Below are positions 57,137 through 59,938 of a stretch of 63,346 bases of DNA, piece after piece (position 1 is the stretch's first letter; every line of letters begins with the position of its first letter). The notes under the pieces are model-generated. The model searched no databases. It worked only from the letters and a program-made list of their open reading frames with translations, and was not told the origin of the DNA. The translations under genes were made by a program, and so were the position numbers. The stretch covers positions 1-63,346 of the forward strand of contig CAWBHS010000012.1 of NCBI GenBank assembly GCA_963788655.1. Direction: 5' to 3'. Origin of the DNA: an uncultured Verrucomicrobiae bacterium. GTDB taxonomy: Bacteria > Verrucomicrobiota > Verrucomicrobiia > Limisphaerales > JAFGQR01.

Positions 57137-58411
57137 CTATTCCCCCGGTACCAGATCGCCGATCAGCATGAGCGCCCCGGCGTACCACGCACGGCCATCA
57201 AATCGCTTCGGATCGTCCATTTTCTCATTTCGCCGGCTCAGGATTTTTACCTTGTCAGGTTGCTCGGGATGAATCTCGATCCGGACCGAATGGACCGTGT
57301 CCTGCAGCCCTGTCCCCACCCACAACTGGGCCAGCCGATGGTAAGTGCAATACGCGTCAAACCGCGGCACTGTCACCGGCGGACGATCGTCCAGGTGGAC
57401 AATGACCTGCCCGCAATCCGGGCCCAACAAATCGTAAATGCCCGCCATGGTGCCGCGAAACTTGAACTCAATGCTTTCGCCCGGTGTTTGGGCGGTCCAC
57501 ATCTCCGGCAACCGATTGGCAAAGCGCCGCGCCAAACCATCTTTCGCGGGATCCATCTTTCGCCAACCTTGGCTCAGCTTGGCCCGATTCAGGGGCACTA
57601 GTTTGGCCGCCTCCCAATTGTCAGCCACAAACGGAGTTCCCAGCGGGTGCGAGCCGGTTTGCCCGACGCCACGGATTTCCGTCATGCTGCGCACAATCGC
57701 TTCGAGGTACAGTTGATGTCCGGTATCGGGATACGGATGCACGCCATCCGGTGAAAATGGTATCTTGTCACCTACGGCTGCTTTTTGGGCGTCGGTCTTC
57801 GGCTTGCTGCCTTTGAAGATCAGCTTGGCCGCCTTTTCCAAACGAGCCACCTCCAATCCCAAGTTGATCGAAGGGATGTGGTAATGCTCGGCGATCTTTT
57901 CCATGGCTTGATAAGAACGCGGCAGCGCACCTTCCTGCAAGGTCTGGAGCATGTTGCCTGCTACGGTGTAAACAAAACAAATATCTGTTTGTGGATCGTG
58001 GCGCCAAGTTTGCCGCACGATCCCTTCCATGCTGCGATAAATCCGCTCGGGCGACGCGCCCCCGTCGTTTACGGCAAACTCCACAAACATCAAATCCGGC
58101 TCATGGTCCAACACGTCTTGCCGCAATCGAAACACACCCAGGTCCGAACCCGTCCCGCCAATCGCCGCATTGATCTCACTCACCCGTGCATCAGGATATT
58201 GTTCCTGAAACCATTTGAGCGTTTTGGGACGCCAACCCGCTTGCGCCGTGATGCTACCGCCCAGATACGCGATCCGGACCGTGTCCCCGTCCTTCAATTT
58301 AGCCAACACGTTGGGCAAACCGCCGCGCGGGTTGCACTCGGTCAAATTCGATTCCGCCGCCACGGCGCCCAGGGCTATGGCCAAAATAATATGGAAACAA
58401 TTAATTTTCAT
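57137..58411 (-). CDS. SGNH/GDSL hydrolase (secreted esterase)
   Basis: YLGGSIT, AIGGTGS, EFAVND, DGVHP. Confidence 0.85.
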   Translation of the reverse strand: MKINCFHIILAIALGAVAAESNLTECNPRGGLPNVLAKLKDGDTVRIAYLGGSITAQAGWRPKTLKWFQEQYPDARVSEINAAIGGTGSDLGVFRLRQDVLDHEPDLMFVEFAVNDGGASPERIYRSMEGIVRQTWRHDPQTDICFVYTVAGNMLQTLQEGALPRSYQAMEKIAEHYHIPSINLGLEVARLEKAAKLIFKGSKPKTDAQKAAVGDKIPFSPDGVHPYPDTGHQLYLEAIVRSMTEIRGVGQTGSHPLGTPFVADNWEAAKLVPLNRAKLSQGWRKMDPAKDGLARRFANRLPEMWTAQTPGESIEFKFRGTMAGIYDLLGPDCGQVIVHLDDRPPVTVPRFDAYCTYHRLAQLWVGTGLQDTVHSVRIEIHPEQPDKVKILSRRNEKMDDPKRFDGRAWYAGALMLIGDLVPGE

Positions 58412-58630
58412 TGCTGATGCGAAGGAGACTACCTGCCGCGGCTCAGAAAACCAAGAAATGCTCACCTCCGAGACACTCCACGCTCAGTCTGCGCTCCGAT
58501 CACTTCTGTTTTTTGCGCCAAATTCCTGTCAAAAAGATGGCGCGATATCCTTCACATAAATGGATTACAGAGGCTGATCCGGTTTCGTCGGAGCAGCGAA
58601 CCTTGAAAGAATCGCCTCAGCCTCAAAACG

Positions 58631-58963
58631 CTGGAGACCGGGCCGATCACGCGATTTGCCGGGGCGGGTAATTACGTTTCCTATTGTCGGGGGGTGCGCG
58701 CCGAGAAACTTTCCAACGAGCGCAAGAAAGGCCAGAACAACCGCAAATGTGGGAACAAGTATCTGGCCTGGGCCTGGATGGAAGCTGCGCATTTTGCGAT
58801 CCGCTACAGCCCGCAAATCAAAGCCTGGTATCAACGCAAACTCAAACGCTGCGGCGGCCAGACGGCGATCGCCCTAAAAGCGGTCGCGGCCAAACTGGCC
58901 AACGCGGCGTATTACCTACTCAAGAATCAAGCAGATTTTAAGATTCAACAAGTCTTTGGCTAA
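58631..58963 (+). pseudogene. IS110-family transposase, C-terminal (Tnp_20) remnant
   Basis: LETGPITRF..AGNYVSYCR...SNERKKGQNNRKCGNKYLAWAWMEAA...KAVAAKLANAAYYLL. Confidence 0.85.
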
Positions 58964-58967
58964 GCTT

Positions 58968-59287
58968 TCGGTGGGGGCGGCAAACCAGGTGAAGGGGTTG
59001 GTGTGAAACCACCAGGACTGATTGGAGCGCCGCCACCGGATCCATTTAACCGCTCGGGCGAGCTGGCAGTAAACGCTGTTTTGTCCGGCCCAAGAGTCAG
59101 CGTGGGTTGAACGCGGGCGGACGGGAAACCGCCCCGGCCGCGAGTCATGGGACTGTGCGCTCCTTATTGTACCTGGGTTGGTACGAATGATTTTCTGGCT
59201 CGGCGCGCGCGGAGTGGGGCCGGTTCGAAACGCAGGCCGCCAGGCCTGCCGGACCGGACTAGAACCAGATGGATGACCGGACAAAAC
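58968..59287 (+). ncRNA. candidate IS110 bridge/seek RNA
   Basis: stem 58968-58981/59029-59040 encloses guide-hairpin-guide; second stem GTTTTGTCCGG (59078-59088)/CCGGACAAAAC (59277-59287); guides match the element's right junction. Confidence 0.6.
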
Positions 59288-59429
59288 GGATGGCGCCCCG
59301 CAGGCGGGACGTTAAACGTTGGAACCTGGCGAGGGAAGTTGTCGGTGCAACGGCGGACCTGGCGGCACGGACGAGCATCGGTGCGTCGTGTCAAAAAACA
59401 GTTTTTTGGCAACCGAATAATTTTGTCTC

Positions 59430-59460
59430 TTGACACGAACCTTTAATGGATGACCCGTTT
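59430..59460 (+). mobile_element. predicted IS110 right end and junction with target
   Basis: outward TTGACA (59430-59435), then ...TTTAATGGA-TGA-CCCGTTT. Confidence 0.55.
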
Positions 59461-59466
59461 ACGTTT

Positions 59467-59592
59467 ATGGTGGCGCGCCTGCGAGCCGAAACGACCATGA
59501 CCTGGCGTTGGATTGCCGAGCAATTGGCGATGGGCCACTGGCGGACGGCGGCGAATGCGGTGCGGGCGGTGGGATTGAACCGGCGAAAATGA
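59467..59592 (+). pseudogene. C-terminal fragment of a REP-associated tyrosine transposase-like protein
   Basis: ARLRAETTMTWRWIAEQLAMGHW resembles the HTH tail of Verrucomicrobia RAYT-like proteins; followed by CTGACCCTTT at ~59624. Confidence 0.5.
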
Positions 59593-59636
59593 CTATGGCG
59601 TCCACATACTCCATTAGACATCTCTGACCCTTTGAC

Positions 59637-59835
59637 AGTCGGGTCCGCAATTCCAAAGCGGCCTTCGCCTTGAGCCTCTTCCGTCGGGTGGTCGTCAGTT
59701 TCGCTCAGGTGTGGGTGGACCGATGCCGGCAGATCAATCCATGCAGCCGCGTCACCACCCGTAAGTTTTAAAAACGCTTCGGACGCCGCGACGGCGGCCC
59801 TGAGCGCTTGCACGCACTAATTTCCGCAAAATTTC
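59637..59835 (+). pseudogene. possible ISAs1-like transposase C-terminal fragment
   Basis: SRVRNSKAAFALSLFRRVVVSFA... with an internal TAA; resemblance only. Confidence 0.3.
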
Positions 59836-59938
59836 CGGAGTCCTGGAGCTTACCGAGTCGAAAAGGTGCGTCCTACGGCCCAGTAGATTTAGAAATTTAC
59901 ATCTTGACTATTCGTTTTCTTTCTGGCAGAAGCGAGAC

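Follow-up and report, generated by a model that had tools for sequence, protein, structure and literature searches.

A 63,346-nt window from an uncultured Verrucomicrobiae bacterium (GenBank assembly GCA_963788655.1, contig CAWBHS010000012.1, positions 1 to 63,346) contains, as judged by sequence comparison, the right-hand two fifths of an insertion sequence (IS) of the IS110/IS1111 family, truncated at its 5′ end. We consider it very probable that this IS1111-type element, whose guide RNA region is intact, was guided by its own RNA into a site resembling a repetitive extragenic palindromic (REP) sequence, and that it underwent a 5′ deletion later. A sequence-only reading of the same DNA had already proposed an IS110 remnant with a bridge RNA, and all the strings that it cited were found at the positions it gave: AAGGGGT at 58992-58998, the hairpin TGGTG/CACCA, GGACTGA at 59015-59021, AAGAGTCA at 59092-59099, GAGTCAT at 59142-59148, ATGGATGA at 59269-59276, the 11-bp stem, and ATGGA-TGA-CCCGTT at 59446-59459. 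The two ends of the remnant are as follows.

58631..58963, + strand: C-terminal 110 codons and stop codon of the transposase gene, IS110 family, IS1111 type (Pfam, NCBIfam, protein and DNA alignment)
59430..59453, + strand: right end of the IS, with TTGACA at 59430-59435 (presumed -35 half of a junction promoter on the circle), the subterminal repeat region at 59436-59445, ATGGA at 59446-59450 and the core TGA at 59451-59453

Transposase homology does start at about 58631, as the sequence-only reading had it, and is of the IS1111 type. The reading frame 58631-58963 is open (...LETGPITRFAGAGNYVSYCRGV...FKIQQVFG, then stop), with no stops or frameshifts in 110 codons. The 110-residue piece matched PF02371 over the Pfam cut-off (E 2.1e-6) and positions 239-342 of the 343-position NCBIfam profile NF033542, ‘IS110 family RNA-guided transposase’ (E 2.7e-11); the NF033542 score was under the full-length cut-off, the remaining piece being just 110 aa. 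Searching for longer proteins with this piece gave 268 matches at E≤0.001 among 461 candidates, of which the top matches showed 84% identity, were 353-355 aa long, and had the domains PF01548 and PF02371. Genomic comparisons used a set of 78 related loci from one genome-contig scan, labeled L001-L078. The best named protein relative belongs to a Verrucomicrobiota metagenome-assembled genome (MAG), and the closest genomic relative, L001, comes from a Verrucomicrobiales MAG. Because alignment with 28 full-length relatives placed the window piece in the last ~110 columns (residues ~246-355), and because DNA homology to L001 starts at ~58628-58632, sequence further upstream being unrelated, the window copy has lost its left end and ~245 N-terminal codons (about 735 bp, two thirds of the gene). 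The N-terminal DEDD/RuvC-like catalytic domain PF01548, present in all 28 aligned full-length relatives, is thus deleted, and the window element is therefore a remnant and not a functional member of the family.

The right junction had been placed at 59450/59453, and this placement is correct because the right ends of relatives fall at the same motif. Of 78 distinct downstream regions, 52 contain the motif TTGAC-N-(T)AATGG-N-TGA, and among the 26 without it are several on contigs that end too early; the window copy of the motif occupies 59430-59453 (TTGACA...AATGGA-TGA). Identity among multi-copy relatives drops exactly at this motif. Six Rudaea copies have in common TGAAGACTCATG[TCGCCGCCGCC]...[GGAGGCGGCGA]AATGG-TGA, followed by diverging flanks C(A/G/T)CCG(T/C)T, and two Desulfobacterales copies terminate in ...CTCTTGACCAGGCCTCTAATGGG-TGA-CCCC. 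L001 is collinear with window positions 58632-59452, and its contig terminates at ...AATGGATG / ...TTTAATGGATG.

Left ends of relatives begin TGATAATCAT and are found 48-260 nt upstream of the protein match, which leaves a short non-coding region on that side of the gene. Most of the 48 listed left ends read TGA-TAATCAT, variants being TAAACAT, TAAGCAT, TATTCAT and, in Rudaea, AGACTCATG; the predicted start TGACTC was seen in none of the 48. Subterminal inverted repeats of 7-12 bp are present in relatives (L061, AAGGCGGC/GCCGCCTT; Rudaea, TCGCCGCC/GGCGGCGA), and a search found no such repeat in 12 of the relative loci examined. The core is TGA at the window's right junction, and relatives carry TGA (or CGA) at both junctions. 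CGA replaces TGA at one or both junctions in L023, L026, L018 and L020; in L023 the donor guide follows the CGA core (ATGGGCGA), and the target-loop guide stays UGA. In two further relatives the last ~24-26 nt of the right end recur in tandem just outside the element (L042, at about 2310-2365, with TTGACCAGGCCTCTAATGGGTGA twice; L067, with GGAGAGGGCTAAT... again), which looks like the scar of an earlier or nested insertion.

Immediately downstream of the transposase stop codon is the first RNA structure, loop 1, whose parts, including the 5′ guide (right target guide, RTG) and the 3′ guide (left target guide, LTG), are listed here together with the DNA that the 5′ guide reads.

58969..59038, + strand: target-binding loop, seekRNA-like, with outer stem 58969-58981/59027-59038
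58985-58988 with 59022-59025, + strand: helix CCAG/TTGG of loop 1
58989-58998, + strand: 5′ guide (RTG) of loop 1, GTGAAGGGGT
58999-59014, + strand: hairpin of loop 1, TGGTG at 58999-59003 and CACCA at 59010-59014
59015-59021, + strand: 3′ guide plus core (LTG) of loop 1, GGACTGA
59453..59462, + strand: right half of the target, ACCCGTTTAC, which pairs with the 5′ guide

The same unit follows the stop codon directly in nearly all relatives and consists of a stem, ACC(A/G), the 5′ guide, a UGG-hairpin-CCA, the 3′ guide ending in UGA, UUGG, and the stem. A covariance model of the target loop (R1), built from 58 sequences and applied at E≤0.01, gave 84 matches in 79 sources, loop 1 being conserved in about 60 elements. 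Its sole match in the window, at 58969-59037, scored 61.6 bits (E 3.7e-14) and ranked 19th of the 84. The covariation score of loop 1 was 0.267 versus 0.186 ± 0.009 in shuffled alignments (0/500), and was ≤0.193 when the partners were slid.

Loop 1 had earlier been claimed to be a target loop that has TGA as its core and predicts the right junction, a claim that guide-flank permutation tests and the L061 insertion site bear out. Between the window guide GUGAAGGGGU and its flank ACCCGTTTAC (59453-59462), eight of the ten positions form Watson-Crick pairs. None of 48 foreign guides paired as well with this flank. Of the 1802 TGA sites that the window has on its two strands, 4, one of which is the junction itself, reach the junction's pairing score with the 5′ guide. 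Across 49 guide-flank pairs, the RTG scored 7.29 of 10 with its own right flank vs 6.12 with others (0/2000 permutations), its five distal positions giving 2.72 with own and 2.16 with other flanks. The six LTG bases that precede the core were identical to the element's own left flank at a mean of 4.27/6 in 48 pairs (0/10000 permutations). An element from Nitrospirota has the guide AAUAGGAC instead of the usual ...GGGGU, and the adjoining flank, GTCCTATTG, matched it at 9/9 positions.

The window's ideal target, AGGAC-TGA-CCCCTTCAC, is the actual insertion site of L061, a relative from Verrucomicrobiia. The L061 junctions read CTAGGAC-TGA-IS-TGA-CCCCTTCACGTTTT, the right side being CCCCTTCAC; the left flank of L061 (AGGACTGA) is the same as the window LTG, and the window flank TGACCCGTTTACGTTT is the L061 site with two substitutions. 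The order of the guides in loop 1 agrees with that described for IS1111 seekRNAs, in which the top-strand match lies 5′ of the bottom-strand match (PMC11187229). On these comparisons, loop 1 is the target-binding loop, with guides that predict the element's own right junction and, via L061, the full target. Tandem target loops with differing 5′ guides and near-identical 3′ guides were seen in L022 (3157-3223 and 3330-3397), L027 (1144-1211 and 1224-1291), L040 (3514-3581 and 3623-3688) and likewise L042; such pairs may give two target specificities.

Several points weigh against this account of the insertion. Many of the related loci share ancestry, so that the permutation counts overstate independence. 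The window has neither left end nor left flank, so that the guide-junction test covers the right half only, and in that half the two positions outside the Watson-Crick pairs are one true mismatch and one G-U pair. Finally, 61.6% of the stem cells of loop 1 were paired, a count that lends weak support and is noisy because outer-stem bulges and register differ between lineages.

Beyond loop 1 lies a second domain, with the following parts.

59078..59287, + strand: second domain, closed by helix P-0 and containing loop B and the donor-binding multiloop
59078-59088 with 59277-59287, + strand: helix P-0 (11 bp), GTTTTGTCCGG/CCGGACAAAAC
59086..59180, + strand: loop B, target-loop-like, with helix P-a at 59086-59099/59168-59180, which includes AAGAGTCA
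~59100-59107, + strand: RTG′ of loop B
~59108-59147, + strand: long hairpin of loop B, whose 3′ strand contains GAGTCAT
59148-59156, + strand: LTG′ of loop B, TGGGACTGT
59187..59195, + strand: candidate left-end guide (right donor guide, RDG), AUGAUUUUC
59269..59276, + strand: left-donor guide (LDG), AUGGAUGA, the same sequence as the right-end octamer at 59446-59453

The layout was common to 37 aligned elements: P-a with loop B, the block NGATTTTCTGG, hairpins P-b and P-c, and (C/T)TTGATCCNG-ATGGNTGA-CTGG. RNAalifold predicted 23 pairs from the 37 sequences, 18 of them with at least one compensatory change (in P-a, P-b and P-c); P-a has 12 predicted pairs, mostly with compensatory changes. 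Helix P-0 was assessed by pairing, for each element, the 26 nt 5′ of P-a with the 26 nt 3′ of ATGGNTGA. Cognate duplexes averaged -13.8 kcal/mol compared with -10.0 kcal/mol for 1330 non-cognate pairs (0/5000 permutations); the window duplex reached -18.8 kcal/mol, a stability equaled by none of 36 foreign partners, and the helix sequences vary by lineage. The earlier proposal that the 11-bp stem closes the donor domain is upheld by this advantage of cognate duplexes in the 37 elements. The RNA fold of 58960-59460 had z = -2.4, with 0/100 shuffles folding as well. Rfam 15 gave no match at gathering scores across the whole window or at E≤10 in 58300-59900, which means only that no Rfam 15 family reached threshold.

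Of 36 aligned elements, 30 had an LDG (the ATGGNTGA column) identical to their own right-end octamer, a count reached in 0/10000 permutations, and the other 6 were one base off; the window LDG agrees with its own right end at 8/8 positions. Eight distinct LDG octamers were seen, e.g., ATGGATGA, ATGGGTGA, ATGGCTGA, ATGGGCGA and ATGGATGT, and an unaligned search for LDG-like octamers agreed with the aligned-column result. Because the LDG tracks the right-end octamer in this way, the assignment of ATGGATGA as the donor guide for the right end is confirmed. The sequence-only reading had gone further, describing the insert in the donor loop as unusually large and suggesting that the architecture may be distinct. 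Neither holds: the 490 nt between stop codon and right end compare with roughly 370-650 nt among relatives, so that for this clade the non-coding region is of ordinary size; the supposed insert is present in 37/37 aligned elements; and multi-loop donor sites in many IS1111 elements have been published already (Durrant et al. 2024, PMC11208160). Nor did its two choices for a left-end guide, AAGAGTCA or GAGTCAT, survive alignment. The former belongs to a conserved GAG(C/T)CA block that is part of P-a and loop B, and GAGTCAT spans the 3′ strand of the hairpin in loop B and continues into the first base of that loop's 3′ guide.

A different and better candidate for this guide is GAUUUUC (AUGAUUUUC in the window), which lies on the 5′ side of the multiloop, with the LDG on the 3′ side, and so mirrors the order in the target loop. 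GAUUUUC can pair with left-end GA(T)AATC. Every listed element with T at left-end position 7 has A or G facing it. Where position 7 is A (12 listed elements), the facing base is T in six and G in five, L016 being ambiguous; where it is G, the facing base is T (L002, L010), C (L078) or G (L058). In Rudaea, GAT in the candidate guide has become GAGT where ATC in the left end has become ACTC. This assignment has to contend with one constant T-T mismatch in all elements, and with a base that does not pair with left-end position 7 in L015, L037, L053, L058, L061 and L067. The independent events are few because the fitting lineages are related. A 6-mer search of L061 and the Rudaea element found no guide complementary to the left ends, and GAUUUUC arose from alignment alone. 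We regard AUGAUUUUC/GAUUUUC as a moderate, weakly supported candidate RDG. A terminator-like hairpin followed by ATGATTTTCT at 59167-59200 (+ strand) overlaps this candidate; it is probably RNA structure or guide and not a terminator, because the T-run is conserved within the NGATTTTCTGG block of relatives.

Loop B resembles the target loop in sequence as well as in form. The six nucleotides before TG in loop B were identical to the same element's LTG at 3.64 vs 2.19 of 6 positions (0/5000 permutations), and the 3′ strand of loop B in many cases repeats the LTG: the window has GGGACUG in loop B and AGGACUG in loop 1, L040 has AGGUUUG in both, and the Nitrospirota element has GAGAAAUGA in both. 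On the 5′ side, inspection by eye showed that loop B of L052 repeats UGUAGGGGU exactly, and that L043 and the Nitrospirota element track their own unusual guides; the permutation comparison of RTG′ with RTG (3692/5000) has no bearing on such a match, its registers being misaligned. Loop B was also considered as a donor loop and rejected, its 5′ guide matching no left end in L061, L040 or Rudaea. We found no description of a second target-type loop in the available portions of the literature on IS1111 bridge RNAs and seekRNAs, where the nearest published idea is that of the two-base handshake guides of IS621. The clade is spread over Verrucomicrobiota, Gammaproteobacteria, Nitrospirota, Desulfobacterota and others. 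It is conceivable, though we think it rather unlikely, that the RNA of this clade is a three-loop bridge RNA, in which a target loop is joined to a donor domain with loop B nested inside it, the left guide of loop B following the target of its own element, and that truncated copies such as the present one could then program intact copies in trans. If loop B is functional, the target would be read twice, e.g., for capture and then for an extended ‘handshake’ in the donor/excision complex.

The right flank contains part of another mobile element.

59465..59592, + strand: tail end, ~42 codons, of the gene for a RayT-like Y1 transposase, in the flank outside the IS

A search with this tail gave 27 longer proteins at E≤0.01, most of them 294-329 aa with PF01797; some matches were named ‘REP element-mobilizing transposase RayT’, and homology starts at ...ARLRAETTMTWRWIAEQLAMGHWRTAANAVRA. 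The tail begins ~12 nt past the right end of the IS and the remainder of the gene is absent, so that 59465-59592 is a second mobile-element fragment. The L061 site lies among TAGGAC(T/C)G(A/C)CCC repeats, ~100 nt downstream of a gene tail, ...TARWVSERLKMGHYTRVTQAISRV. The window has a second target-like site, ATCTC-TGA-CCCTTTGAC at 59625 (within 59617-59645, + strand), which is followed by AGTCGGGTC and shows a GACCC/GGGTC inverted repeat; this stretch, which lies downstream of the RayT tail, probably forms a REP-like hairpin. The L061 site, the RayT tail in the window and the site at 59625 together argue for a REP-like repeat that accompanies RayT genes as the target of the element. Targeting of REP sequences is known in the family from IS621 and from ISPpu9/10 (PMC12288879). 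No unoccupied ideal target was found when its 17-mer was sought with ≤3 mismatches in the window and exactly in the relative loci. Pfam had no match for the open reading frames (ORFs) 59147-59446 and 59446-59592, and an NCBIfam match of a 48-aa ORF to OleD was dismissed as noise (E 0.0011, 18 bits vs a cut-off of 580). On the other side of the remnant, the upstream neighbor is an ORF of 442 aa at 57137-58465 on the - strand, opposite to the IS remnant, which, to judge by its sequence, resembles a secreted GDSL/SGNH-type hydrolase.

A scan limited to sigma-70-type promoters found no such promoter on the + strand in 58300-59700. In intact relatives, TTGACA would, once the ends are joined, be followed after 16-17 nt by GATAAT, made up of GA from the core and TAAT from the left end; the two would form a junction promoter such as has been described for IS110/IS1111 circles (PMC12288879 and a review). 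A junction promoter cannot form from the window copy because the left end is gone. With neither promoter nor transposase, the remnant is probably inert, and the earlier suggestion of a working RNA that outlived its transposase is unsupported. The deletion may be recent, because the RNA region is intact.

On the other hand, the region could still be live, as an orphan gene for guide RNA that uses a promoter of the host or a cryptic one and acts either in trans as bridge RNA for intact copies or as a self-mobilizing module, like orphan ssr9 of Pseudomonas putida ISPpu9. Such a gene would fit with a full set of intact RNA elements that score like those of full elements (R1 rank and bits as above) and with retained codons free of stops and frameshifts; moreover, trans action of bridge RNA between IS621 copies is considered possible (PMC13626964), and orphan small-RNA modules of an IS110-family element have been described (PMC12288879). 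We nevertheless consider it improbable. Besides the negative promoter scan and the opposite orientation of the upstream gene, no other copy of the element (BLAST of 58600-59620 against the 63-kb window), no other target loop and no intact target site occur within the window; Ssr9 of ISPpu9 is itself not a bridge RNA and is dispensable for transposition (PMC12288879); and intactness may reflect only a recent deletion.

The donor side had originally been explained by a two-loop bridge RNA, with a donor loop that reads ATGGA-TGA-CTCTT via AAGAGTCA and ATGGATGA and has a 190-nt insert peculiar to the element; the left end would then begin TGACTCTT. Its choices of ATGGATGA and of the closing helix were right, and the 5′ strand of that helix is indeed followed closely by AAGAGTCA, yet L061 also has GAGTCAG although its left end is TGATAAACATT. 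With AAGAGTCA lying in the conserved GAG(C/T)CA block of P-a, which has compensatory pairs across 37 elements, with TGACTC starting none of the 48 left ends, and with the ‘insert’ present in every aligned element, this explanation is very unlikely to hold. Chance resemblance between a structured, G+C-rich untranslated tail and its neighborhood deserves almost no credence. It draws on the proximal ACCCC/GGGGU pairing, which carries little information because it is nearly invariant across the clade, and on the three other TGA sites in the window that score equal to the junction. Cognate combinations nevertheless surpassed shuffled ones for RTG, LTG, LDG and P-0, no permutation reaching the observed value in these four tests, and lineages with other targets have matching guides, as in the 9/9 agreement of the Nitrospirota flank GTCCTATTG. 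Self-guided insertion followed by truncation thus remains the explanation that we favor.

In the history that we propose, the element's own RNA would have guided insertion into AGGAC-TGA-CCC(C/G)TT(C/T)AC, a REP-like site adjoining the tail of a RayT gene. The alignments show that a later deletion took away the left end together with about 735 bp of the transposase gene, leaving the last 110 codons, the full 3′ non-coding region and the right end. The RNA region has three parts. In the target loop, as comparison among relatives shows, the 5′ guide pairs with the top strand right of the core, and the 3′ guide corresponds to the top strand left of the core plus the core itself. Loop B, the second part, is target-loop-like and conserved, and may read the target again. 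In the donor multiloop closed by P-0, the 3′ strand has AUGGAUGA, which by covariation corresponds to the right end plus core, and the 5′ strand has AUGAUUUUC, which probably serves as guide for the left end. In the excised circle of an intact element, to judge from its sequence and from published IS1111 behavior, TTGACA and GATAAT would make up a junction promoter for the transposase gene and the RNA. The present copy, having lost left end, promoter and catalytic domain, cannot move and most likely does not express its RNA.

Among known systems, the IS1111 elements with seekRNAs (ISEc11, ISPa11 and ISKpn4; Siddiquee et al. 2024, PMC11187229) are alike in the transposase's C-terminal domain, PF02371, the long stretch of non-coding DNA that follows tnp, the short stem-loop RNA right after the gene, the guide order, and the two matches that overlap at the insertion point; subterminal inverted repeats with short terminal extensions (here in relatives) and a REP-like target are also shared. 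Unlike those elements, the window copy is without catalytic domain and left end; the non-coding region is 490 nt here (clade range as above) versus 148-172 nt for the published long seekRNAs; and transposases of the clade have 350-355 aa versus the 330-350 aa quoted for IS1111. The IS621 bridge RNA (Durrant et al. 2024, PMC11208160; Hiraizumi et al. 2024, PMC11208158) likewise uses an LTG and an RTG for the target and an LDG (and RDG) for the donor, with left guides that include the core and with recognition of both strands. It differs in that the IS621 RNA lies 5′ of the gene, whereas the RNA described here lies 3′, with the guide order within the loop reversed; in that the core is CT rather than TGA, the RTG here covering only the last core base; and in having a simple internal loop, whereas the donor guides here lie ~80 nt apart in a multiloop with loop B nested as an extra. 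ISPpu9 and ISPpu10 of P. putida (PMC12288879) are also IS110-family elements that insert into REP sequences, form circular intermediates and have orphan RNA modules in the genome. Their bridge RNA, by contrast, is upstream of tnp, and Ssr9 is a separate small RNA that transposition can do without; the orphan state arose by modular transposition there and by truncation here.

RNA-guided recombination by IS110/IS1111 elements, REP targeting and multi-loop donor sites are already published. What the present analysis adds for the window is that a previously unannotated stretch becomes a dated scar, left when a deletion followed an RNA-guided insertion next to a RayT tail, in a REP-like site. For a large IS1111-type clade, it supplies a worked anatomy comprising target loop, loop B, donor multiloop with separated guides, right end, and the two halves of a junction promoter; it could be of use in annotation and when new programmable recombinases are to be chosen.

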